Source: a virus | Taxonomy: Duplodnaviria; Caudoviricetes | Length of the DNA: 57,769 bases | Virus record (IMG/VR): IMGVR_UViG_3300043410_002285 | Span: 1 to 57,769 of that record | Direction: 5' to 3' (one strand) | Shown: piece after piece, positions 3,497-50,836 of the stretch | How positions within the stretch are numbered: the stretch's first letter is position 1 | Layout of the letters: each line of letters begins with the position of its first letter | Made by a program: the position numbers and the translations under genes | The notes under the pieces: generated by a model | The model's database searches: none | The model's input: only the letters and a program-made list of their open reading frames with translations | Told to the model about the DNA's origin: nothing

Positions 3497-6400
3497 TTAT
3501 TTCTTTAAGTCTTGGATTTCTTTATCCAGATCTTTTATCGCTTCGATAAGTAGACCTACTAAGTTTGCATATGCTACACTTAAGTGTCCGTTGTCTTCTC
3601 TTACAGAGATTACCTCTGGAACAATTTTTTGAACTTCTTGAGCGACAACACCCATTTTCAATGATTTGTCCTCGATATCGTTTCTTGTGTAGTTAACACC
3701 TCTCATGCTTCTAACTTTATTTAAAGCATCGCTGATTGTTACGATATTATCTTTAACTCTCTCATCTGAGTATGCTGTTACGTCACCAGAAGCATAGATT
3801 GTACCACCAACATCCAATGTGTAAGAAGGTGAAGCGTTATTGATACCTAATCTTGTGTTGGTTATGTCAACTTTCAAGAAGCTAACACTTTGTACTGTAG
3901 CGGTACCTGTTGTTCTAACTAAATAATCGGGTTGGTTTGTGAATGAACCACCACTGATACCTGAAGTACCATTGATAGATTGACCACTTGTACCAGCAGC
4001 ACCCGATGTACCATTCGAACCATTTACAGCTGATGTACCCGAGTTACCATTCGCACCAGAAGCACCGTTATTACCTGAAGTACCCTGAGTACCGTTTCTA
4101 CCACTTGTACCATCAGTACCACTTGTTGCTGAAGAACCATTATTAGTTGACAAACCTGAAGTACCAAGTCTACCAGATGTACCACTCGTACCTGAAGTAC
4201 CAGAAGAACCATTTGCACCTGAAGTACCATTTGCACCAACACCCGATGTACCAGCACCTGATGTACCTGAAGTACCATTTGCACCTGAAGTACCATTAGG
4301 GCCGTTCACACCTGAAGTACCAGAAGCACCATTAGCACCGTTGTTACCAGTATTACCTGTGGTACCGTTTGTACCTGAAGAACCTGAGTTTCCTGAATTA
4401 CCGTTAATACCGTTGTTACCTGAAGTACCGTTTGTACCAGTTGAACCTGAAGTACCACTAGACCCTGAAGTACCTGAAGAATCCGATAATCTACTAGCAC
4501 CACCAGCACCTGTTGTTCCTGAAGTACCTGTTGAACCAGAAGTTCCTGATGTACCACTTACAGCACTAGCACCGTTACCACCAGCATTACCATTATTACC
4601 TGTAGTACCATTTGAACCTGAAGTTCCTGATAAACCTGAGTTTCCGTTGGCACCGTTGTTACCACTTGTACCATTTGATCCGTTAGATCCTGATAAACCT
4701 GAGTTTCCTGAATTACCGTTAATACCGTTGTTACCTGAAGTACCGTTTGTACCAGTCGATCCAGAAGATCCGCTTAGAGCGGATGCTCCAATATTACCCG
4801 CATTACCGCTTGTACCGTTTGTACCAGTCGATCCTGATGAACCCGATAAACCAGAATTACCTGAATTACCATTAGCACCATTATTACCGTTTGTACCAGT
4901 AGAGCCATTTGTACCGCTTAAACCTGAGTTACCGTTGTTACCAGCAACACCATTAGTACCATTTGTACCAGATGAACCTGAAGAACCAGATGCGGTTGAT
5001 AAACCTGAACCAACCATTAGACCGTTTGTACCAGCGGTACCTGTTGATCCTGAAGAACCAGATGAACCTGATAAACCAGAGTTAGCTGAACCACCATTGT
5101 TACCAGCAGTACCAGTAGTACCTGTTGACCCAGAAGAACCAGATGAACCAGAGTTAGCTGAATTACCATTGTTACCAGCGTTACCACTTGTACCGTTTGT
5201 ACCAGTTGATCCTGAAGAACCACTTAAAGCTGAATTACCATTATTACCAGCAACACCATTTGTACCATTTGTACCTGAAGACCCTGAGGATCCTGATGCA
5301 GTTGATAAACCTGAAGGAACTGCTAAACCACTTGTACCGCCTGTACCATTTGTACCTGAAGAACCTGAAGTTCCTGAAGAACCAGCGTTATTGCTAGCAC
5401 CATTATTACCAAGAGTACCATTTGTACCTGAAGAACCTGAAGTTCCTGAAGAACCAGAGTTATTGCTAGCACCACTATTACCAGCGTTACCACTTGTACC
5501 GTTTGAACCTGAAGTTCCTGAAGAACCGCTATTAGAACTTGAACCTGAAGTTCTGTTAGCACCAGATGTACCATCCGTACCACTTGAACCTGAAGTTCCT
5601 GAAGAACCAGATAATCTAGATGCACCGTTATTACCAGTAGTACCATCCGTACCACTTGAACCTGAAGTTCCTGAAGAACCACTTAATCTGCTTAAACCAG
5701 CGGTACCGTTTGTTCCTGAAGAACCTGAAGATGCTGATGAACCACTTAATTGTGATAAACCTGAATTACCAGCAGTACCTGTAGTACCAGTTGAACCTGA
5801 AGATCCTGAAGATCCACTTAAAGCGGAAGCACCGATGTTACCAGCGGCACCATTTGTACCGTTTGTACCTGAAGATCCTGAAGAACCTGATGCAGTACTT
5901 AATCCTGAAGGAACCGCTAAACCATTTGTACCAGCAGTACCATTTGTACCTGAAGAACCTGAAGTTCCAGCTGAACCACTTAATTGTGATAAACCATTAT
6001 TACCAGTAGTACCTGAAGTACCACTTGAACCAGAAGTCCCTGAAGTACCAGATGCAGAACTTAGACCTGAAGGGACTGTTAAACCACTTGTACCAGCGGT
6101 ACCATTTGAACCTGAAGTTGCTGAGGTAGCTGAATTAGCTGAAGAACCAGCTAAACCATCAGCACCACTTGTACCACTTGTACCTGAAGAACCCGAAGTA
6201 TTTGAATTACCACCTCTACCACCAGAACCATTTGTACCACCAGTACCACTTGTTGCACTTGTTGCACTTAATCCTGATGACCCGCTTAACCCTGATTGAC
6301 CTGAAGTACCATTTGTTCCTGAAGTAGCAGAACTACCAGAAGTTGCTGAACTACCAGAATTTCCACTTAAACCTGAAGTACCGTTTGTACCCGTAGAACC

Positions 6401-9400
6401 ACTTGATCCTGATGTACCAGAACTTGCTGAAGAACCACTATTTGCTGAAGAACCAGATGTACCAGCAGAACCAGATGTACCACTAGAACCTGATGTACCT
6501 GAAGTTGCAGAAGTACCAGCAGAACCGCTTGATCCGCTTAATTGAGATAATCCTGAAGTACCGCTTGTTCCTGTTGATCCTGAAGAACCGCTAGAACCAG
6601 ATGTACCTGAAGATTTACTTAATGCTGAAGCACCATCTGTACCAGCAGATCCTGAACTACCTGAAGATCCAGATGTTCCACTTGTTGCTGAGGTTCCAGC
6701 AGATCCTGAAGAACCACTTAATTGTGATACCCCACTTGTACCAACTGTACCTGAAGTTGCTGAAGAACCTGAAGTTGCTGAAGAACCACTATTTGCACTC
6801 AATCCACTTGTACCGTTAGATCCTGAAGAACCTGAAGTTGCGGATGTACCTGAAGATTTACTTAAACCTGATTGACCATCTGTACCCGCAGAACCTGAAG
6901 ATCCGCTTGATCCAGACGTTCCTGAAGTTGCAGAAGTACCAGCAGATCCTGATGAACCACTTAATTGTGATAAACCTGAAGATCCAGCGGTACCAGAAGT
7001 AGCTGAAGTACCTGAAGATCCAGCAGATCCGCTATTACTTGATTGACCAGCAGTACCATTTGTACCACTCGAACCAGAAGTTGCTGAACTACCTGAAGTT
7101 GAACTTAAACCACTATTACCCGCATTACCTGAAGTACCATTTGTACCAGTTGATCCTGAAGACCCACTTGATCCAGATGTACCACTTGATTTGCTTAAAG
7201 CAGATGCACCATCAGTACCAGCAGAACCTGAAGATCCGCTTGAACCTGAAGTTCCTGAAGTTGCTGATGTACCTGCTGAACCCGCAGAACCACTTAATGC
7301 TGATTGACCAGATGTACCAACTGTACCTGAAGTAGCGCTTGATCCGCTTGTTGCTGAAGAACCTGAATTACCACTTAAACCTGAGGTACCATTTGTACCA
7401 GTTGAACCTGAAGAACCTGAAGTTCCTGAAGATTTGCTTAATGCTGATTGACCATCTGTACCAGCAGATCCACTTGATCCTGAAGAACCTGATGTACCTG
7501 AAGTTGCAGAAGTACCCGAAGATCCAGCTGAACCACTCAATCCTGATTGACCTGAAGTACCAGCGCTACCTGATGTACCTGAAGTTGCGGATGAACCCGA
7601 AGAACCGCTTGTTCCTGAAGATGCTGAAGCACCGCTTGAACCAGATGTTCCAGAAGAAGCGGCAGAACCACTTGTACCTGACGTTCCACTTGTTGCAGAT
7701 GATCCAGAAGTTGCTGAAGATCCACTATTACCTGATAAACCTGAGGTACCATTTGTACCTGTTGATCCTGAAGATCCTGAAGAACCTGATGTTCCTGAAG
7801 ATTTGCTTAATGCTGATTGACCATCTGTACCAGCTGATCCTGAAGATCCGCTTGAACCTGATGTTCCACTTGTACCTGAGGTTGCTGAAGAACCTGAAGA
7901 ACCACTTAATTGTGATACCCCACTTGTACCAACTGTACCTGAAGTTGCTGAAGAACCTGAAGTTGCTGAAGAACCACTATTTGCGGATAAACCACTCGTA
8001 CCGTTTGTACCTGTAGAGCCACTTGATCCTGAAGTTCCACTTGATTTGCTTAAAGCAGATGCACCATCTGTACCAGCTGAACCGCTTGAACCTGAAGAAC
8101 CTGATGTTCCACTTGTTGCTGAAGTACCAGCAGAACCTGAAGAACCACTTAATCCTGATTGACCTGACGTACCTGATGTACCAGAAGTTGCTGAAGAGCC
8201 AGCCGAACCACTCAATCCCGATTGACCTGAAGTACCAGCAGATCCACTTGTTGCGGAAGAACCTGATGTTGCTGAAGAACCACTATTTGCTGATAAACCA
8301 GATGTACCATTTGATCCTGAAGAACCTGATGTACCTGAAGTTGCAGATGAACCACTTGAACCTGATGTACCTGAACTATTACTATTACCTGAACTACCCG
8401 CAGTACCTGAAGATGCAGATGAACCACTTGTACCACTAGTTCCTGACGTAGCTGAACTACCAGCTGTTGCTGAAGAACCACTATTTGCTGACAAACCTGA
8501 AGTACCGTTTGTTCCAGTTGAACCTGATGAGCCACTAGAGCCACTTGTACCACTTGATTTACTTAACGCTGAAGCGCCATCCGTACCAGCAGATCCTGAA
8601 CTACCTGAAGAACCTGAAGTTCCTGATGTAGCGGATGTACCAGCAGATCCAGAAGATCCACTTAATGCACTAGAACCATTTGTACCTGAAGTACCTGATG
8701 TAGCTGATGATCCTGAAGAACCACTCAATTGAGATAATCCTGATGTACCAGCGGTACCTGAAGTAGCTGAACTGCCTGAAGTCGCAGAAGAACCTGAATT
8801 ACCAGATTGACCGCTTGTACCATTAGAACCAGCAGAACCTGAAGTTCCTGAAGTTGCTGAAGACCCACTTGATCCTGACGTACCTGAAGAAGCCGATGCA
8901 CCTGAAGAACCTGATGTTCCTGAAGATGCGGCAGAACCACTTGTTCCACTTGTTCCTGAAGTTGCAGATGACCCAGCTGTTGCTGAAGATCCACTATTAC
9001 CTGATAATCCTGAAGTACCATTTGTACCAGTTGAACCTGAAGAACCTGATGTACCTGAAGATTTGCTTAAAGCAGATGCACCATCTGTACCCGCAGATCC
9101 ACTTGATCCTGAAGAACCTGATGTACCTGAAGTTGCAGAAGTACCAGCAGATCCCGAAGATCCACTTAATTGTGATACCCCACTTGTACCAGCGGTACCT
9201 GAAGTTGCGGATGAACCGCTTGTTGCTGAAGAACCTGAATTTGCTGAAGCACCTGAAGTACCATTAGAACCTGATGTTGCACTTGTTCCTGAGGTTGCTG
9301 ATGAACCAGCCGAACCACTCAATGCTGAACTACCAGAAGTACCAGTTGTACCACTTGTTGCTGAAGACCCAGCTGTTGCTGAAGATCCACTATTACCTGA

Positions 9401-12400: not shown

Positions 12401-15400
12401 ACCAGATGTACCACTTGTTGCGCTTGAACCAGAAGATGCGCTTAATCCAGAAGATCCTGCTGTTCCTGAAGTAGCCGAACTACCAGAAGTTGCAGACGAG
12501 CCCGAATTTGCACTTAAGCCGCTTGTACCGTTAGTACCTGAAGTTGCTGAAGAACCAGAACTTGCAGATGTTCCTGAAGAAGCGGATACCCCTGAAGAAC
12601 CAGCTGAACCTGTAGAACCTGAAGTTCCAGATGTTGCTGAAGTACCTGCACTACCAGCTGAACCACTCAATGCTGAGCTACCAGAAGTACCAGTAGTACC
12701 TGATGTAGCTGAAGATCCTGATGTAGCTGAAGAACCACTATTACCTGATAAACCAGATGTTCCATTAGAACCAGCGGAACCTGAAGTTGCTGAAGTTCCT
12801 GATGAAGCACTTGATCCACTATTTGCTGAAGAACCTGAAGTACCAGCAGAACCAGAACTACCAGATGTACCTGAAGTCGCACTTGATCCTGAAGAACCTG
12901 AAGTTCCAGAACTATTACTATTACCTGAAGAACCAGCGGTGCCAGAACTTGCGCTTGATCCTGAAGAACCAGAAGTTCCTGATGTTGCGGAAGAACCAGC
13001 AGATCCACTTGATCCACTATTTGAACTTAAACCTGAAGTACCATTTGTACCTGAAGTTGCACTTGATCCAGAAGATGCTGATGTACCTGAAGAAGCGGAT
13101 GCTCCTGAAGTTCCATTAGAACCTGTAGACCCTGAAGTTCCACTTGTAGCTGAACTACCTGAAGAAGAACTCAATCCACTTGAACCAGCAGTACCTGAAG
13201 TAGCTGAACTACCTGAAGTTGCGGAAGAACCTGAATTAGCTGATAAACCACTTGTACCATTTGTACCTGAAGTTGCAGAACTACCACTTGACGCAGATGT
13301 TCCTGAAGATGCTGAAGCACCACTTGAACCAGCTGTTCCTGAAGATGCGCTAGAACCAGCAGAACCACTTGTTCCTGAAGTTGCTGAACTACCAGATGTA
13401 GCACTTGATCCACTATTAGCACTCAACCCTGAAGTACCGTTTGTACCAGATGTAGCTGAACTACCACTTGATGCGGATGTACCTGAAGAAGCTGAAGCTC
13501 CTGAAGTACCGTTTGAACCAGCAGAACCACTTGTTCCTGAAGAAGCTGAAGATCCGCTTGAACCACTTAAAGCTGAAGAACCGTTTGAACCAGACGTTCC
13601 TGAAGTTGCGCTTGATCCTGATGTAGCTGATGAACCTGAGTTAGCTGACAAACCTGAAGTACCATTCGTACCCGAAGTTGCTGAAGATCCACTAGAACCA
13701 GCTGTTCCAGAAGATGCGGAAGCACCACTTGAACCGTTAGAACCTGTTGAACCTGAAGTACCTGATGTAGCACTTGATCCTGAAGATGAACTCAATCCTG
13801 AAGAACCAGCAGTACCACTTGTAGCCGAACTTCCACTTGTAGCTGAAGATCCACTATTAGCTGATAAACCACTTGTACCATTTGTTCCACTTGTAGCTGA
13901 ACTACCCGAAGAACCTGACGTACCAGAACTACTACTATTTGCACTAGAACCTGAAGTACCAGCGGAACCAGAACTACCAGATGTACCTGAAGTTCCTGAA
14001 GATCCGCTTGAACCTGAAGTTCCTGAACTATTACTATTACCTGAAGAACCCGCAGTTCCTGAAGAAGCTGAACTACCTGAAGAACCTGAAGTTCCACTTG
14101 TAGCTGAACTACCTGAAGTTGCTGAAGACCCACTATTTGCACTCAATCCGCTTGTACCATTTGTTCCACTTGTTGCTGAAGAACCAGAAGACGCAGATGT
14201 TCCTGAAGAAGCTGATGCACCTGAAGAACCATTAGAACCAGTTGATCCTGAAGTCCCACTTGTAGCTGAACTACCTGAAGATGAACTTAATCCTGAACTA
14301 CCTGAACTACCAGATGTACCTGATGTAGCTGATGAACCTGATGTAGCTGAAGAGCCTGAATTAGCTGATAAACCTGAAGTACCATTTGTACCACTAGTTG
14401 CAGATGAACCAGAACTTGCTGACGTTCCTGAAGAAGCAGATGCTCCCGAAGAACCTGCTGATCCCGAAGAACCAGCTGTTCCCGAAGTAGCTGAACTACC
14501 CGAAGATGCGGATAAACCACTAGAGCCCGCTGTACCTGAAGTAGCACTTGAGCCACTTGATGCGGATGAACCGCTATTTGAACTTAATCCTGAAGTACCA
14601 TTTGTACCTGAGGTAGCAGAACTACCTGAAGAACCTGAAGTACCAGAACTATTACTATTACCACTTGAACCAGATGTACCTGAAGATGCTGAACTACCTG
14701 AAGAACCTGATGTTCCGCTTGTAGCTGAAGATCCTGATGTAGCTGATGAACCTGAGTTAGCACTCAATCCTGATGTACCATTTGTTCCACTTGTAGCTGA
14801 ACTACCTGAAGAACCAGAGGTGCCTGAAGATGAAGATGCACCAGAAGAACCGTTTGAACCAGTTGATCCTGATGTACCTGAAGTTGCGGATGAACCACTT
14901 GATGAAGATAAACCACTTGAACCAGCCGTACCGCTTGTTGCTGATGATCCAGATGTAGCTGAACTACCACTATTTGCACTTAAACCACTTGTACCATTTG
15001 TACCTGAAGTTGCACTTGAACCACTTGATGCGGATGTTCCTGAAGAAGCGGATGCTCCTGAAGAACCTGATGTACCACTTGTTGCTGAGCTTCCTGAAGA
15101 AGCACTTAAACCACTTGAACCTGCTGTACCTGAAGTAGCAGAAGATCCTGAAGTTGCTGAAGACCCACTATTTGCACTTAAACCACTCGTACCATTTGTA
15201 CCAGAGGTTGCGGATGAACCACTTGATGCAGAAGTCCCTGAAGATGCTGACGCACCACTTGAACCAGCTGAACCTGAAGTTGCACTTGTACCTGAAGATG
15301 CTGATGATCCACTTGATGCACTTAAACCAGAAGAACCAGCTGAACCTGAAGTAGCTGAAGATCCACTTGTTGCGGATGAACCACTATTAGCACTCAAACC

Positions 15401-45849: not shown

Positions 45850-47748
45850 TTAGTTTAGTTTTATTGTTTTATTTGTTTTAATTTGGTTTTCTGTTTTTAA
45901 CATACCATAGTATGTACCAGGTATTACATTAGTTAAATCGACAGGGTAAACGTATTTACCTTTGTACATTTTACCACTGAAAACTGTGTGTACTAATTTA
46001 CCATTAGCATCAAAGAATCCAACTAATATTTCACCATCTTCTGGTACACTAAAACTAACATACGCAAAACCTTCTGTCGGGTTAGGTGCCACAATTATTT
46101 CACAATCTTTTGTTGTATTAGCACCACCGTTAATCTTGAATATTTTAACAACACCGTTTGTTGGTGTTATTCTTAGGTCAGTTGCATTTGCATCACCAGC
46201 ATATTTTCTAATAACATATAAAGGACTATGGGTCCAAGTTGTTTGTGCACTTAAAGCTGTAAATTGTAAATTTAAAACAGCATCACCGTTATTAGCCAAA
46301 TATTCATTTTTACTCATATCTGCACCAGCCCATTCAACAACACCATCATTTGGGTTTAAGAATGACATCCAGTTCATGAATTTTTGTTCTGTTTGAATAC
46401 CTTTAAACTCTAATAAATTTTTATCATAAGCTAAAGCTAATTGAATAGAACCAACTTGATCACCAGCGGTTAAAACTTTCATCGGAACATTTACTAATGT
46501 ACCCTCAGTAACTTCAATTTGTGGTAAATTAATTTCAATTGTTGCTGTGGGAAAATCATACTCAACCGTTTCATCGATGATATATTTAGGTGTTTTGCTA
46601 GGATTTAAGATTTCAATAGGAATTGTACGAGCCATATGGAAACCAGTACCGTTAGCATCACCACCACCTAATACATAGAATGTTACAGAGTCTGGTTGGC
46701 CCGCAATAATATCAAATGTTAAGTTAGTTACACCAGCAATTGATGATGTATAGTTAGTTGAAGAGCCATTAATTGTTGCGTATTGAGACGCTGAAAAGAA
46801 TCTAACATCTTTAACACTATTAGGCCATACAGTAAATCTACCCGCTAAACGACCATAAATTGCAGATACGTCAGCAATTGTAATACCATTTGATCCGTTA
46901 ACATCTGATGAGTAGAAATCAAAACCAGTCGGTGTCTCCTCGCCAATAACAAATTTATTTACTTTTTGAGCATCAGCCACAGATACTGTAGCACCAACAG
47001 CCATCGTATCACCCTTCACATATAAATGAGCATCCCAATAAGTTGTATCCAATATTTCATCAAAAGCAAAATAACCAGTAACATCAGTGGTGTCAATCTT
47101 AACTTGAGTCCAAGCACCTGTTGATGTTTTAGGTCTTTTTTCTAAAGCAACTGTAATGTTTTTAGAGCCAGTACCAGTTACGTTTGTGAATCTACCGTGG
47201 TATTTAAGTCTGTTTAATTTGAACTCACCACCATAACTATGTAAAGACAAACCAGTATCCATACCAGCTATTGTAGCCGCATATGATGGGAATGTCATTG
47301 TACCAACAATTTTCAAACTATCAATACTAGTTAAAGCTTGGAATGCCGTTGCATTCTCATGGAAGAATTTTATTTGAAAAGCGGCACCGTTTGCATAAGT
47401 AAACGAGTTGTTGGTACCTGTATACGCTAAGGTAATTGTAATATTACCATTAACTGAGTCAGCTACATATTGCATGTATTGATCAGTTGAACTGTATACC
47501 AAACTAACAATTGGTTTAGCACCACCAAAGGCTACTTTATCGTAGAATACACGAAATTGTAAACCAGCAATTTTAGTCGTTGTTGAATTGTCATAGTAAA
47601 GGTTAGCTAATGTGAAACCTTGTGATTGGGGACCAACATTGTAAGATGAATCAACGACAATCCAATTACCCGTTGAAGGTCCTGTTGTTTGTGCATAGCC
47701 CATTACAGCCAAAAACGCCAGCACTAGCGTTAATAAAAATTTTTTCAT
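45850..47748 (-). CDS. Secreted cohesin/dockerin protein with T9SS type A C-terminal sorting domain
   Basis: Signal peptide; cohesin-like IAGLQFRVFYD and VNVPM..VGSIQLALAYDKNLLEF; dockerin-like DVNGSNGITIADV; CTD VAPNPT...FFDANGKLV...GTYY...KTIK. Confidence 0.85.
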   Translation of the reverse strand: MKKFLLTLVLAFLAVMGYAQTTGPSTGNWIVVDSSYNVGPQSQGFTLANLYYDNSTTTKIAGLQFRVFYDKVAFGGAKPIVSLVYSSTDQYMQYVADSVNGNITITLAYTGTNNSFTYANGAAFQIKFFHENATAFQALTSIDSLKIVGTMTFPSYAATIAGMDTGLSLHSYGGEFKLNRLKYHGRFTNVTGTGSKNITVALEKRPKTSTGAWTQVKIDTTDVTGYFAFDEILDTTYWDAHLYVKGDTMAVGATVSVADAQKVNKFVIGEETPTGFDFYSSDVNGSNGITIADVSAIYGRLAGRFTVWPNSVKDVRFFSASQYATINGSSTNYTSSIAGVTNLTFDIIAGQPDSVTFYVLGGGDANGTGFHMARTIPIEILNPSKTPKYIIDETVEYDFPTATIEINLPQIEVTEGTLVNVPMKVLTAGDQVGSIQLALAYDKNLLEFKGIQTEQKFMNWMSFLNPNDGVVEWAGADMSKNEYLANNGDAVLNLQFTALSAQTTWTHSPLYVIRKYAGDANATDLRITPTNGVVKIFKINGGANTTKDCEIIVAPNPTEGFAYVSFSVPEDGEILVGFFDANGKLVHTVFSGKMYKGKYVYPVDLTNVIPGTYYGMLKTENQIKTNKTIKLN

Positions 47749-47877
47749 GTTAAGTTGTTTTGATTACTTATAAATATTAAAAAAACTCAAAAAAACCATT
47801 TACTTTGAAAAAAAAAGTATTAAAGAAAAAAAATAACTTTTACATTAAATGAAGATATTTATTCGTTAAAAAAGAGT

Positions 47878-48129
47878 ATGAATAAGACAGCTTTTGAATA
47901 TCTTAAAGATTTACAACAACAATTAACAACATTGATTGATGAGCAAGAAAATAAGTTAGATGAAATTGATAATGAAAATTTTAAAGATGATGTATCTGAA
48001 AATATTTTTGGTAGAATTGAGGACGTTCTTTATGAAATAGAAACAATAATGACGGATCTTGAAGAAGGTTATTATAGTGATGATAACAAAGATTTTGATG
48101 AAGATGGAGATGATTTTGAAGAATTTTAA
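47878..48129 (+). CDS. Small highly acidic protein
   Basis: 83 aa, D/E-rich, helical; TATTTAT at 47856. Confidence 0.7.
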   Translation: MNKTAFEYLKDLQQQLTTLIDEQENKLDEIDNENFKDDVSENIFGRIEDVLYEIETIMTDLEEGYYSDDNKDFDEDGDDFEEF

Positions 48130-48145
48130 TTTTTTTTATAAAAAA

Positions 48146-48177
48146 TTTGGTTTTTTGAAAAACTTTACTTACTTTTG
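48146..48177 (+). promoter_or_regulatory. Bacteroidota-type promoter driving the leader + tRNA array
   Basis: TTTG(48146-48149)-N20-TACTTTTG(48170-48177); a second TATATTTG at 48183-48190. Confidence 0.75.
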
Positions 48178-48204
48178 TACTATATATTTGAAATAACAAA
48201 AAAA

Positions 48205-48303
48205 ATGAAAAATATGAACCTACATATTGCAGTGATTAAACCGATGGCGGTGTGCCAATGGTATCCTCGTGCCATATCGGGTTCAGACCAAGTATTTTCA
48301 TAA
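48205..48303 (+). CDS. Leader peptide (32 aa) of putative tRNA-array attenuator
   Basis: MKNMNLHIAVIKPMAVCQWYPRAISGSDQVFS after an A-rich start; codons 6-24 use exactly the 13 amino acids of the downstream tRNAs. Confidence 0.8.
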   Translation: MKNMNLHIAVIKPMAVCQWYPRAISGSDQVFS

Positions 48304-48337
48304 TGTTATAGAGATAAAACTAAAACTACGAAAAACG

Positions 48338-48371
48338 AAGCCCTGAACCAACAAGTTCAGGGTTTTTTTTT
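48338..48371 (+). terminator. Intrinsic terminator (attenuator) between leader and tRNA array
   Basis: AAGCCCTGAAC-CAACAA-GTTCAGGGTTTTTTTTT. CTGAACC (48343-48349) can alternatively pair with GGTTCAG (48280-48286) in the leader ORF. Confidence 0.85.
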
Positions 48372-48373
48372 GT

Positions 48374-48384
48374 TGTTCTTTGAC
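48374..48384 (+). promoter_or_regulatory. boxA-like antitermination element
   Basis: TGTTCTTTGAC resembles rrn boxA (TGCTCTTTAAC) and lies between the terminator and the first tRNA. Confidence 0.55.
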
Positions 48385-48403
48385 GTATTGGTAAAATTAA
48401 AAT

Positions 48404-48478
48404 AGCGTAGTTGGCCAATTGGTAGGCCGCCTCATTTGGGATGAGGACATAGTGCAGGTTCGAGTCCCGTCTACGCTA
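48404..48478 (+). tRNA. tRNA-Pro(TGG) #1, atypical acceptor
   Basis: AGCGTAG/CTACGCT acceptor, GGCC/GGCC D-stem, CCTCA-TTTGGGA-TGAGG anticodon arm, TTCGAGT T-loop. Confidence 0.8.
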
Positions 48479-48484
48479 CTATTT

Positions 48485-48560
48485 CAGGATATGGGGGAGT
48501 CAGGTCGTCCCTACCTGCCTTGGACGCAGGGGATCGCTGGTTCGAATCCAGCTATCCTGA
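48485..48560 (+). tRNA. tRNA-Pro(TGG) #2
   Basis: CAGGATA/TATCCTG-A, CCTGC-CTTGGAC-GCAGG, GCTGG-TTCGAAT-CCAGC. Confidence 0.9.
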
Positions 48561-48566
48561 CACAAT

Positions 48567-48640
48567 GTCTTCGTAGCTCAGTAGGTTAGAGCACCTCACT
48601 TTTAATGAGGGAGTCACAGGTTCGAGTCCTGTCGGGGACA
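48567..48640 (+). tRNA. tRNA-Lys(TTT)
   Basis: GTCTTCG/CGGGGAC, CCTCA-CTTTTAA-TGAGG, ACAGG-TTCGAGT-CCTGT. Confidence 0.95.
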
Positions 48641-48645
48641 CAAAC

Positions 48646-48715
48646 GTATAAGTTGATCGTGGTGGTCGGTTGGTCTGCAAAACCAATGGTGTTGGTTCGA
48701 TTCCAACCTTATACT
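48646..48715 (+). tRNA. tRNA-Cys(GCA)
   Basis: GTATAAG/CTTATAC with U73, TTGGT-CTGCAAA-ACCAA, short D-loop. Confidence 0.88.
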
Positions 48716-48724
48716 CAAATATAC

Positions 48725-48795
48725 ACGGATATGGTGAAATGGTATCATAATGGTCTCCAAAACCACAGTTCAGGGTTCGAATCCTTGTATCCGTG
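48725..48795 (+). tRNA. tRNA-Trp(CCA)
   Basis: ACGGATA/TATCCGT with G73, TGGT-CTCCAAA-ACCA, CAGGG-TTCGAAT-CCTTG. Confidence 0.92.
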
Positions 48796-48802
48796 CTAAA
48801 AT

Positions 48803-48882
48803 GCCCTTGTAGGCGAATGGTATAGCCGCTGGTCTTAGAAACCAGAGCGAAAGCATTGCAGGTTCGAGTCCTGCCAGGGGTA
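48803..48882 (+). tRNA. tRNA-Leu(TAG)
   Basis: GCCCTTG/CAGGGGT-A, CTGGT-CTTAGAA-ACCAG, long variable arm GCGAAAGC. Confidence 0.93.
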
Positions 48883-48887
48883 CACAT

Positions 48888-48960
48888 GCACCTTTAGCTC
48901 AGTTGGTAGAGCGCTGCCCTTACATGGCAGATGTCATAGGTTCGAGTCCTATAGGGTGTA
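48888..48960 (+). tRNA. tRNA-Val(TAC)
   Basis: GCACCTT/AGGGTGT-A, CTGCC-CTTACAT-GGCAG. Confidence 0.95.
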
Positions 48961-48962
48961 CA

Positions 48963-49101
48963 AAGGTTGATCGGGGAATGGTCACATCAATAGTTCGAGA
49001 GTGAATACTGACTGGTGTGATCGGAGTTTACAGGTATTCACCAGAGTAATGCTGATCGTAAAAGAGGATGTCCACTGAACCATCTTCCTCTTCCCTAACT
49101 T
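48963..49101 (+). ncRNA. Unidentified structured RNA (~140 nt) with kissing-loop pseudoknot inside the tRNA array
   Basis: Closing stem AGGTTG..GGGAA / TTCCC-TAACTT; hairpin GGTCACATCA/TGGTGTGATC; hairpin AGTTTAC/GTAATGCT; loop-loop GTGAATAC/GTATTCAC; hairpin GAGGATG/CATCTTC. Confidence 0.7.
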
Positions 49102-49183
49102 GCCAGTATCGCATAGCGGCAATTGCGGCTGACTGTAAATCAGCTCCCTTACGGGTTCGGTGGTTCGAGTCCACCTGCTGGCA
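49102..49183 (+). tRNA. tRNA-Tyr(GTA)
   Basis: GCCAGTA/TGCTGGC-A, GCTGA-CTGTAAA-TCAGC, long variable arm. Confidence 0.95.
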
Positions 49184-49195
49184 CTATTTATTAAT

Positions 49196-49657
49196 ATGAG
49201 AAAATTAATATTAATGATTGTAATGGTTTTATCTACAACGATTTGTAAATCACAAATTGTGATAGATAAAGCTGGGGATGGTTGGGATCTGAGAGCTGAT
49301 AGTGCTTTAGCTATTATCAAACAAACGGATACAACCGCTTATAAACTTGTGTTACGAGTTTGTAATAAAATAACTTTTTGGTCTGGGAACTATTCAACAA
49401 ACGAGGGTTCTAAAGATACAAAAGGGAGTATAATAATATCATCGACAGATGCTAGGGCAAAATCCCTAAACAATCTCGCTGCTGTTATTGTACATGAATC
49501 TTTACACCTTTATCTTAGATATAGGGGTGTCCAAGAATCACCAAAAGAAGAAATACTTTGTTATTCATATGAGTATGACTTTTTAAGGAAAATACCAAAC
49601 GTTGAGCAGTATCTGTTAGATCATTGTTTAAGACAGATAACTTTTCGACAAAATTAA
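49196..49657 (+). CDS. Secreted HExxH metallopeptidase-like protein inside the tRNA array
   Basis: Signal peptide MRKLILMIVMVLSTTICKS; VIVHESLH...EE; own TATTTAT motif at 49185. Confidence 0.75.
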   Translation: MRKLILMIVMVLSTTICKSQIVIDKAGDGWDLRADSALAIIKQTDTTAYKLVLRVCNKITFWSGNYSTNEGSKDTKGSIIISSTDARAKSLNNLAAVIVHESLHLYLRYRGVQESPKEEILCYSYEYDFLRKIPNVEQYLLDHCLRQITFRQN

Positions 49658-49658
49658 T

Positions 49659-49731
49659 GGGGTCATAGCTCAATTGGCTGAGCGCTTCCCTTGCAAGGAA
49701 GAGGATGTGGGTTCGAGTCCCATTGGCTCCA
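49659..49731 (+). tRNA. tRNA-Ala(TGC)
   Basis: GGGGTCA/TGGCTCC-A with G3:U70; CTTCC-CTTGCAA-GGAAG. Confidence 0.95.
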
Positions 49732-49737
49732 CTATAT

Positions 49738-49811
49738 TGTCCTGTAGAATAATGGCAGTTCACCCGACTTTGACTCGGGTCGTCCAGGTTCGAGTCCTGG
49801 CGGGACAACCA
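49738..49811 (+). tRNA. tRNA-Gln(TTG)
   Basis: TGTCCTG/CGGGACA (U1-A72), CCCGA-CTTTGAC-TCGGG, encoded CCA. Confidence 0.93.
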
Positions 49812-49814
49812 AAT

Positions 49815-49889
49815 GGTGAGATAGCTCAGAGGAAGAGCATTCGGCTCATATCCGAAAGGTCGGGATTTCGAAATTCCCTCTCACTACCA
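49815..49889 (+). tRNA. tRNA(CAT): elongator Met or Ile2
   Basis: GGTGAGA/TCTCACT-ACCA, TTCGG-CTCATAT-CCGAA; lacks initiator hallmarks. Confidence 0.88.
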
Positions 49890-49894
49890 TATAT

Positions 49895-49969
49895 GGTTTC
49901 TGTAGCTCAGCTGGTTAGAGTACTTGATTGTGATTCAAGAGGTCGTGGGTTCGAGCCCCACCAGTCACC
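49895..49969 (+). tRNA. tRNA-His(GTG)
   Basis: G-1:C73, CTTGA-TTGTGAT-TCAAG; two acceptor-stem mismatches. Confidence 0.88.
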
Positions 49970-49976
49970 CAAAAAT

Positions 49977-50050
49977 ACCTTCATAGCTCAATGGATGAGA
50001 GCGTTTCGCTACGAACGAAAAGGTTGGGAGTTCGAGTCTCTCTGAAGGTA
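49977..50050 (+). tRNA. tRNA-Arg(ACG)
   Basis: ACCTTCA/TGAAGGT-A, TTTCG-CTACGAA-CGAAA. Confidence 0.94.
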
Positions 50051-50110
50051 CAATAAACCTGTTTTTGCTACGATAAACAAACCATGTTTATTATGCAAAA
50101 TTTAATTTAT

Positions 50111-50184
50111 CGTCCTGTAGCTCAATTGGTTAGAGCGTCTGCCTGATACGCAGAAGGTTAGTGGTTCGAGTCCACTTGGGACGA
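50111..50184 (+). tRNA. tRNA-Ile(GAT)
   Basis: CGTCCTG/TGGGACG-A, TCTGC-CTGATAC-GCAGA. Confidence 0.94.
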
Positions 50185-50272
50185 CTATATGGTATAGATA
50201 ATGTCTATATTAAAATATTGATTATCATTGTTTTATCTCATTTTTTATGGTATATATAAAAAAATATATGTT

Positions 50273-50836
50273 ATGAAAAAAATCCTATTATTAACAATGT
50301 TACTTATTCCATTCCTTAGTAACGCACAAGAATTTAAATTTAGCCCATATGTTGATCAAGTTGTTTCATGTTATGGTAATAATGATGGTTATATACAAGC
50401 TAATTGTAAACCAGAAGGTGAATATGTTTTCACCATAAGTAATAAATCCCTTAAAGATACAAATACCTCGGGTTCATTTTTTAATTTAAAACCTGGTACT
50501 TATACGGTTTGTGCAACAAATGGTGTTTTAAAAAAATGTGAAAAACTAACAGTAACATCACCAAAAAAACTAAACGTGTCTTTTACTGACGAAAAATTAC
50601 CAACACTGTCTGATAATAAAGGTGCTATATCACTAACAATAACTGGTGGTACTACTGAAATACAACCATATTTAGTAAATTGGTTTAATAGTAAGGGTGT
50701 TAGATTAAACACGGATGACACACCATATTCATTGTATATGGAAGATTTACCACCAGATTTATATACAATTAAAATAGAAGATGACCACGGATGTTTTTTA
50801 ACAAAAACACATAGGTTAACAAAACCCAAAAAATAA
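50273..50836 (+). CDS. Secreted SprB-repeat protein
   Basis: Signal peptide MKKILLLTMLLIPFLSNA; VSCYGNNDGYI..F.NLKPGTYTV and GAISLTITGGT..PY..W..L..DLYTIKIED.HGC (two SprB-like repeats). Confidence 0.78.
   Translation: MKKILLLTMLLIPFLSNAQEFKFSPYVDQVVSCYGNNDGYIQANCKPEGEYVFTISNKSLKDTNTSGSFFNLKPGTYTVCATNGVLKKCEKLTVTSPKKLNVSFTDEKLPTLSDNKGAISLTITGGTTEIQPYLVNWFNSKGVRLNTDDTPYSLYMEDLPPDLYTIKIEDDHGCFLTKTHRLTKPKK

Follow-up and report, generated by a model that had tools for sequence, protein, structure and literature searches.

How does a phage that carries its own tRNA genes control their expression? This question is raised by a stretch of 57,769 nt from a virus of the Caudoviricetes (IMG/VR record IMGVR_UViG_3300043410_002285; the whole stretch is called the window below), in which an array of 14 tRNA genes is preceded by a promoter-like site, a short open reading frame (ORF) and an intrinsic terminator. 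On the basis of an analysis that was computational throughout, we consider it likely that positions 48146-48371 represent a ribosome-mediated transcription attenuator, which would control read-through into the phage's own 14-gene tRNA array. The elements involved are collected in Table 1.

Table 1. Elements of the putative attenuator and of the tRNA array behind it (positions refer to the window).
Feature	Position	Strand	Basis or remark
Promoter-like site, Bacteroidota type: TTTG (48146-48149), 20 nt, TACTTTTG (48170-48177)	48146..48177	+	sequence pattern, conservation
Leader ORF, 32 codons plus TAA, peptide MKNMNLHIAVIKPMAVCQWYPRAISGSDQVFS	48205..48303	+	ATG at 48205, TAA at 48301-48303; frame and length kept in 12 distinct type A sequences
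Putative sensor block, codons 2-25; each of the 13 amino acids with a downstream tRNA is represented by one codon or more	48208..48279	+	codon/array comparison
Possible region 1, TGAACCT; partner of GGGTTCA (48279-48285) in the minimum-energy fold at full length	48215..48221	+	doubtful
Region 2, antiterminator 5′ arm GGTTCAG, codons 26-28; repeats the terminator 3′ arm	48280..48286	+	sequence, fold, pairing in 18 type A and B sequences
Extension helix, 5′ strand GTATTTTC with A48294 bulged; spans the final codons and borders on the stop codon	48292..48299	+	minimum-energy fold of 12/12 type A variants
Small apical hairpin in the antiterminator loop (GTT.TAG / CTA.AAC)	48305..48326	+	predicted in all type A variants
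Extension helix, 3′ strand GAAAAAC; 7 pairs with GTATTTTC	48330..48336	+	sequence, fold
Region 3, shared strand: CCCTGAAC (48341-48348) is the terminator 5′ arm, CTGAACC (48343-48349) pairs with region 2	48341..48349	+	
Region 4, GTTCAGGG (48355-48362), then nine T (48363-48371)	48355..48371	+	with region 3 forms the intrinsic terminator
Conserved 18-mer TTCTTTGACGTATTGGTA between terminator and first tRNA	48376..48393	+	once in window
14 tRNA genes, presumed to be regulated	48404-50185	+	ARAGORN, Rfam tRNA matches

The mechanism that we envisage is the following. A promoter of the Bacteroidota type would start a transcript, the first feature of which is the 32-codon leader ORF. Upon translation of this ORF, codons 2-24 would sample every amino acid that is served by the downstream tRNAs, mostly by means of the exact codon box. 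Region 2, which lies inside the ORF, could pair with region 3, which itself is the 5′ arm of the intrinsic terminator (regions 3:4 plus nine T). Region 2 is transcribed first, and the 2:3 helix would form unless a ribosome is located on region 2 or just past it. If the matching charged tRNAs are scarce, the ribosome would lag at codons 2-22, the 2:3 helix would persist, no terminator would be formed and the tRNA genes would be transcribed. Upon fast decoding, the ribosome would proceed to the stop codon at 48301, melting and occupying region 2 and the extension helix, the 3:4 helix would form and transcription would end at the T-run. In this manner, the supply of tRNAs would feed back negatively on tRNA synthesis, with one module for each sub-array.

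An earlier, preliminary description of this locus had proposed the two mutually exclusive helices, and its coordinates and pairings proved correct throughout, not only for GGTTCAG and CTGAACC but also for GTATTTTC, GAAAAAC and the terminator. CTGAACC in region 3 is the exact reverse complement of GGTTCAG in region 2, and GGTTCAG occurs only twice on the plus strand of the complete window. The intrinsic terminator, which was found as hairpin and T-run by a terminator scan, has a stem of 8 bp and a loop of 6 nt (48349-48354), with an energy of -12.1 kcal/mol, followed by nine T. When the terminator 3′ arm is omitted, RNAfold returns exactly the proposed antiterminator for positions 48277-48354 (-13.9 kcal/mol, z -2.84), and only one of 200 dinucleotide shuffles is as good. 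The leader as a whole (48200-48375) is strongly structured (-49.5 kcal/mol, z -5.08).

Leaders that are unrelated to that of the window in their terminator stems were found next to a conserved 18-mer, TTCTTTGACRTATTGGTA, of which exact copies exist in more than 111 viral stretches; it often follows an intrinsic terminator and precedes a tRNA by 10-25 nt. We examined 77 instances (L096-L171, the L numbers designating loci of this comparison). A tRNA is found within 80 nt in 22 of these, and 15 are located directly behind an intrinsic terminator, 13 of them with downstream tRNAs. Three of the 15 (L117, L157, L147) were skipped as duplicates of L105, L149 and L142 over a flank of about 75 nt, which left 12 to be opened. 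All 11 non-duplicate loci with terminator, 18-mer and tRNA contain an ATG ORF of 23-37 codons which ends 49-63 nt before the T-run and has a promoter-like site upstream; most of these ORFs start with MK. Ten of the eleven were tested further, L152 being left out as nearly the same as L129. In all ten new types, the mutually exclusive arrangement of 2:3 and 3:4 recurs, as it does in each of the 20 distinct leader sequences of the close set described below, which supports the geometry claimed in the preliminary description. Across all 16 leader types, an ATG ORF of 23-45 codons is present with its stop codon 22-37 nt before the terminator arm, and the terminator consists of a G+C-rich stem with at least six T behind it. 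The distance from the start of region 2 to the stop codon is 9-40 nt in all 15 types in which it was measured.

The relation between region 2 and the terminator was analysed in a covariation test which had not been used to find the leaders. The last 48 nt of each ORF were paired with the 5′ arm of each terminator. For the 16 types, the pairing energies of each ORF 3′ end and the terminator arm of the same leader sum to -210.9 kcal/mol, compared to an expectation of -133.3 kcal/mol, and none of 20000 permutations was as low. For the 11 types with distinct stems, own pairs have a mean of -13.0 kcal/mol, a value reached by none of 50000 permutations, compared to -8.2 kcal/mol, and the own leader ranks first for 7 of the 11 terminators. 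No signal is obtained in a control with the first 48 nt of the ORFs (-4.4 vs -4.7 kcal/mol; 33714 of 50000 permutations as low). This co-variation between region 2 and terminator is a compensation of the whole helix, and it is the main evidence for a real antiterminator. The occurrence of the arrangement across relatives and independent types is far beyond chance.

The close relatives of the window's leader were gathered from loci with homologues of an ORF inside the tRNA array (52 viral loci), from pattern scans of a viral collection (15 and 17 stretches) and from a metagenome scan (18 stretches). In the latter, 14 stretches have a leader followed by tRNAs, and four (L082, L086, L088, L094), which are devoid of a downstream tRNA, were treated as chance matches. 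The close set consists of 47 instances with 20 distinct leader DNA sequences, which fall into four types: type A, to which the window belongs (12 sequences), type B with leader peptides starting MKNTN[RK]NM... (6 sequences), type C (L076) and type D (the second leader in L075). Types A and B have the stems GGTTCAG(G) / CCCTGAACC / GTTCAGGG in common and are equal in the distance between region 2 and the ATG, with completely different intervening ORFs. When cut before region 4, each of the 20 distinct leaders folds into a hairpin closed by 2:3 (-13.0 to -23.3 kcal/mol), and these antiterminators are at least as stable as the respective terminators (-10.7 to -17.4 kcal/mol). Over the 18 sequences of types A and B, standard pairing is found in 126 of 126 cells for the seven pairs of the core 2:3 helix and in 144 of 144 cells for the eight pairs of the terminator. 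Changes in the core 2:3 helix are restricted to six one-sided, G-U-compatible cells at three pairs; all three substitutions are transitions, and two changes in region 3 keep the pairing in both alternative helices.

The second line of evidence comes from the leader ORF itself, which matches the tRNA array that it precedes. In the window, codons 2-24 cover all 13 amino acids of the array, with 21 of 23 residues being within the array alphabet. Not one of 16,961 equally long windows taken from the long ORFs of the window has such a full coverage. Under strict wobble, 20 of the 31 leader codons are read by the array, compared to 24% expected (binomial P=1.9e-6). The same holds for leaders of other types. 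Over 15 types (L137, the array of which is cut after two tRNAs, was left out of these statistics), a fraction of 0.77 of the block residues is present in the own array vs 0.51 in the arrays of other types, and none of 20000 permutations was as high; without two near-duplicate types, the values are 0.74 vs 0.50.

The preliminary description had pointed out that region 2 begins right where the sensor codons end, and that the last eight codons of the leader (SGSDQVFS) leave the alphabet matched by the tRNAs. The latter observation holds family-wide. In the pooled leaders, 276 of 358 block residues (77%) match the array, compared to 62 of 116 residues (53%) in the tail, i.e. after region 2 begins (Fisher P=3e-6); the corresponding numbers in the window are 21 of 24 and 2 of 7. 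This supports the view that the tail serves the RNA structure.

At the codon level, 9 of 10 Arg codons and 3 of 5 Ser codons are in the box read by the respective tRNA of the array. The first 22-23 codons of type B leaders are restricted to M, K, N, T, R, V, A and G, and the tRNAs of the corresponding arrays are those for Thr, Lys, Lys, Asn, Arg, Val, Ala, Met, Gly, (Thr) and Gly. Most amino-acid replacements among close relatives remain within the amino acids of the array; L003 and L079, with Thr at codon 23, are among the exceptions. In a lineage with an array that lacks tRNA-Ala and has tRNA-Ser(GCU), the leader has no Ala codon and does have an AGT codon. Among the 12 distinct type A sequences, the leader ORF has 4, 2 and 7 variable sites at codon positions 1, 2 and 3, respectively.

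The promoter-like site upstream of the leader fits what we take to be the Bacteroidota -33/-7 promoter consensus, and a transcript is predicted to start approximately 20 nt before the leader ATG. The pattern TTTG-N18-22-TAnnTTTG has three matches on the plus strand and two matches on the minus strand of the complete window, and one of these is the site at 48146-48177. The site is kept before every type A leader, and a similar one precedes the leaders of types B, D and E and both modules of a cultured phage, to which we turn below. In locus L075, the segment from the promoter-like site to the type D leader ORF contains a near-perfect inverted repeat (GGAATGTGAAAAATA / TATTTTTCACATTTCC, 6874-6905), which could be an operator or a 5′ stem-loop. 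The start region of the leader ORF is A-rich. In an alignment of types A, B and C (A1), bases 1-8, 10, 12-14 and 20-23 of the ORF are invariant (encoding MKN[MT]N and including an ATAT), while the remaining ORF differs; AAACATATG is found at the same place in several type E leaders. These shared positions point to an additional constraint at the beginning of the ORF, e.g. from the initiation region or the nascent peptide.

The cultured phage is Cellulophaga phage phi17:2 (NC_021798.1), in which an identical promoter-like sequence occurs twice (L203:1353 and 2295), heading two modules of promoter, leader, terminator and tRNAs, with coordinates L203:1353-1513 and 2295-2487. The first module has the leader ORF MKIQRLHLQELEQPIISGGTGV, a terminator of -12.9 kcal/mol and a 2:3 duplex of its own of -11.8, and is followed by tRNAs for Pro, Glu, Gln, His, Leu, Leu and Arg. 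In the second module, the leader position is taken by the ORF of hypothetical protein gp077, which we read from a GTG start as QLTKTGITVIDKTKGARAYLGDTVIG; a terminator and tRNAs for Ala, Ile, Gly, Met, Asp, Thr, Val, Arg and Met follow, and the next terminator is located just before tRNA-Tyr. When counted by hand, each of the two leaders matches its own sub-array, not the other. Another leader-like ORF of this phage, gp078, precedes tRNA-Ser and was left out, as there is no clear terminator.

Several results weigh against an attenuator of this kind. When the window is taken alone, its 7-bp core helix does not exceed chance: when the upstream 125 nt are shuffled, a duplex at least as stable with the terminator 5′ arm region is obtained in 149 of 1000 cases. 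The core pairing is real, but proves little from one sequence. Among the 18 close type A and B sequences, not a single double compensatory change is found in the core helix. Their columns are almost invariant, which leaves shuffle controls without power, and by the criterion of covariation these close sequences neither refute nor prove the 2:3 helix. The compensatory changes which the preliminary description had suggested to look for in homologues are encountered between the leader types and not within types A and B.

The extension of the antiterminator by pairing of GTATTTTC with GAAAAAC, also part of the preliminary description, is possible and is contained in all 12 type A folds, but as an isolated duplex it is weak (-3.2 kcal/mol). 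In the L085/L073 lineage, where the tail peptide QVFS has changed to LVVL and the 5′ strand of the extension is different, a 9-bp helix is nevertheless predicted, in a register shifted by two. We had considered two pairs in this helix as compensatory but have dropped them, as the shift in register precludes a column-wise covariation. Upon swapping of strands between the lineages, energies change from -3.2 and -5.2 kcal/mol (own) to -3.1 and -3.5 kcal/mol (swapped); in the window, the own strand pairs no better than that of a relative. For a hairpin between regions 1 and 2, as it is known from the classical four-region form, significance was reached in none of the types, 92 to 1000 of 1000 shuffles being as good. 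In the window, the 1:2 pairing is contained in the fold (216 of 1000 shuffles as good), and it is absent or poor in the other leader types; we have rejected it as a part of the mechanism, since neither statistics nor comparison support it. As there is no significant 1:2 hairpin, an untranslated leader is predicted to read through.

A core helix that is not significant in the window alone would also be found with an ordinary terminator and a chance complementarity to it. Such a terminator would end the upstream gene (47878-48129) or a small independent gene, and tRNA transcription would start downstream, e.g. at the 18-mer. Some arrays indeed have a promoter directly before 18-mer and tRNA, without a leader. 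Furthermore, a homologue of the upstream gene, which codes for an acidic protein, is directly followed by a similar terminator and the 18-mer in L142 and L147 (from the same records as L012 and L013), which are devoid of leader and tRNAs; these look like a natural deletion or like the state before acquisition of the array. We nevertheless consider this explanation to be quite unlikely, as region 2 tracks the terminator sequence across the 11 independent types, and as leaders mirror their own arrays, which would be senseless for uncoupled units. In addition, no consistent -10 or -7 element was detected downstream of the 18-mer by reading of the sequences.

The influence of the ribosome was modelled by forcing its footprint of 27 nt (A-site -15 to +11) to be unpaired in a transcript that ends before region 4. 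For the window, this gives a probability of upstream pairing of region 3 of 0.72 in the absence of a ribosome and of 0.72-0.75 with the ribosome at codons 2-22. The value drops to 0.48 at codon 23, to 0.04-0.28 at codons 24-32 and to 0.01 at the stop codon. These values agree with the preliminary description, according to which a ribosome stalled in the sensor block leaves the antiterminator free, and one that has run on to the stop codon disrupts it. In types B, C and D, the stop codon is located 27-38 nt after the start of region 2, and this simple model leaves the 2:3 helix intact with a ribosome at the stop codon (0.87-1.00). In these types, the ribosome would have to act while crossing region 2, or by sitting in the small loop to be closed by 2:3 (steric exclusion). 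Moreover, once region 4 is included, the terminator is the preferred structure at equilibrium wherever the ribosome is placed (0.98-0.99). As the terminator wins at equilibrium, the switch would have to be kinetic, with the antiterminator forming first, which is likewise how the antiterminator acts in classical attenuators.

If the position of the ribosome makes no difference at equilibrium, the leader might be an RNA switch that is independent of translation, in which the choice between 2:3 and 3:4 is set by a protein, a small RNA, direct binding of tRNA as in a T-box, or the speed of transcription, and in which the ORF is incidental. Structural co-variation by itself does not need translation, and there is no Shine-Dalgarno sequence before the ATG. 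The absence of the latter is to be expected, as Bacteroidota generally lack Shine-Dalgarno sequences. A switch of this type appears unlikely to us, given that all 16 leader types have a suitably placed ATG ORF, that replacements are mostly within the amino acids of the array and that the amino-acid set of the leader tracks its own array and also the codon box of tRNA-Arg. Neither a T-box nor any other leader family is matched in Rfam; the best leader match is Thr_leader (RF00506) with 23.2 bits, compared to a gathering threshold of 55 (E=0.23).

As to the sensor, only 14 of 23 Leu codons are in the box read by the array. The window's array is devoid of tRNA-Asn, which leaves two Asn codons in the conserved MKNMN start without a counterpart. 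For type C, the match between leader and array is weak (P 0.05-0.13). In L083, the leader peptide is identical to that of most type A leaders, including three Ala codons, and the array has no tRNA-Ala and contains tRNA-Ser(GCU). This looks like a recent exchange of array content which the leader has yet to follow. Sensor codons occur one to three times each and not in runs, and the sensitivity of the system is thus only presumed. In the second module of phi17:2, the 2:3 duplex is weak (-6.6). Finally, the 18-mer could have a role that is not part of the attenuator, namely as a processing signal, a recombination site of tRNA cassettes or a start signal. In a large group of its instances, the 18-mer is found in a different, highly conserved context, adjoining tRNA-like calls with an unassigned anticodon.

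If the 18-mer and the A/U-rich spacer were processing signals, the leader could be a translated sensor with another output, such as the processing or stability of the pre-tRNA, or Rho-dependent termination after release of the ribosome. RNA-library contigs (24 public runs were covered, by their contigs only) bridge leader, terminator and tRNAs, though these may be derived from DNA. One such contig of 2389 nt, which originates from a relative, covers positions 47894-49300 with 124 differing letters over 1407 nt; it is evidence for neither transcription nor termination. We regard another output as very unlikely, since the canonical G+C-rich stem with its T-run is present in every type and since region 2 competes specifically for the 5′ arm of the terminator stem.

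Beyond this locus, we lean, with less confidence, towards the general view that tRNA arrays of large Bacteroidota phages are self-regulating modules, consisting of promoter, 'pangram' leader ORF, attenuator, 18-mer and tRNAs. Each module would gauge the capacity of the cell to decode the codons of its own tRNAs, and would transcribe these tRNAs only when this capacity is short. Not every array has a leader, as neither leader nor terminator precedes the first tRNA in the distant arrays L054, L055, L056, L019 and L026, which adjoin homologues of the ORF inside the array. When positions 47850-50300 were compared by blastn to 50,697 phage records, 882 of these matched, and among the 30 matches listed all start at query position 716 or later, i.e. 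in the tRNA genes, and none extends over the leader.

The classical attenuators (trpL, hisL, leuL, thrL, ilvL, pheL) exert leader-peptide control over amino-acid operons. Like these, the phage leader has a short ORF between promoter and regulated genes, with regulatory codons that would report the supply of charged tRNA, and a terminator 5′ arm which is shared with an upstream antiterminator arm, the decision being made by the ribosome position. It differs in regulating tRNAs rather than enzymes, and in having a sensor for up to 13 amino acids with one to three codons each instead of a run of codons for one amino acid. In addition, its region 2 is inside the ORF, upstream of the stop codon and not after it, and a conserved 1:2 hairpin is lacking. 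The attenuator of pheST (pheM leader), which controls phenylalanyl-tRNA synthetase in E. coli and senses one amino acid, is similar in applying leader-peptide attenuation to a component of the translation apparatus, read via the availability of charged tRNA. There the regulated product is the synthetase protein, whereas in the phage the regulated product would be the sensed molecule itself, resulting in direct feedback. In T-box riboswitches, too, the status of tRNA decides between terminator and antiterminator in a leader. They bind uncharged tRNA via a specifier codon and the acceptor end, without translation, and control genes for synthetases, transporters and biosynthesis; the phage leader, in contrast, has a conserved ORF and no T-box match.

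Clusters of tRNA genes are well known from phages such as T4, T5 and others, where they are arrayed on a large genome, as they are here, and are transcribed as polycistronic precursors. The tRNA region of T5 may also hold small ORFs. We know of no leader-peptide attenuator for a tRNA array, be it from a phage or from a cell. None was found in full-text literature searches, the scope of which excludes the older papers on the T5 tRNA region. In the passages of PMC3082878 and PMC4810235 that were consulted, a leader peptide or attenuator before a tRNA array is not described.

The purpose of phage tRNAs has been debated for a long time, with compensation of codon usage, host shut-off and escape from tRNA-cutting defences under discussion, and their regulation has hardly been addressed. 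If our interpretation is correct, leader-peptide attenuation would for the first time be found to control tRNA genes. The mechanism, so far associated with amino-acid operons and one synthetase operon, would be extended to genes for non-coding RNA and to a sensor for multiple amino acids. The phage would measure decoding capacity, its tRNA output would be under feedback control and the sub-arrays would be independent regulatory units. The supply of phage tRNAs would then be driven by demand, which may arise e.g. from host shut-off, from a host with mismatched codon usage or from anticodon nucleases of host defence. As modules occur in the cultured, non-pathogenic pair of Cellulophaga baltica and phi17:2, the idea is open to direct testing.

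The window is judged to be 19% complete in the virus record and thus is a fragment of a large phage. Next to the leader, a gene on the minus strand (45850-47748) codes for a protein with a cohesin domain and a type IX secretion sorting tail, the latter being below threshold (24.6 bits vs 27). As this gene and the promoter-like sites point to Bacteroidota, we infer that the host of the phage is probably a member of this group.

The array encodes, in this order, tRNAs for Pro, Pro, Lys, Cys, Trp, Leu, Val, Tyr and, behind the ORF at 49193-49657, for Ala, Gln, Met, His, Arg and Ile. This ORF has 154 residues with a signal-peptide-like hydrophobic stretch at its start and matches no Pfam family. 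Several of the 52 viral loci with homologues adjoin tRNA arrays. A spacer of 141 nt (48962-49101) in front of tRNA-Tyr contains a hairpin (AAGAGGA ... TCCTCTT) right before the tRNA. The hairpin does not match an Rfam family, and it is also found in the unrelated locus L156 (approximately 12420-12500) as AAGGGGA ... TCCCCTT, with both sides changed and a similar loop.

The CTGAACC motif of region 3 occurs 36 times on the plus strand between positions 5005 and 25165 of the window, in places with spacings of 63, 72 or 81 nt (all multiples of 9), which is suggestive of a very long coding region of repetitive sequence, unrelated to the attenuator. In close relatives (L004-L008, positions 2801-2950), a tRNA-Cys and a tRNA with CUA anticodon are located approximately 90-240 nt upstream of the leader ATG, both of which are absent from the window. 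The latter is of the amber-suppressor type, is labelled Pyl by ARAGORN and may hint at stop-codon reassignment in this phage group.

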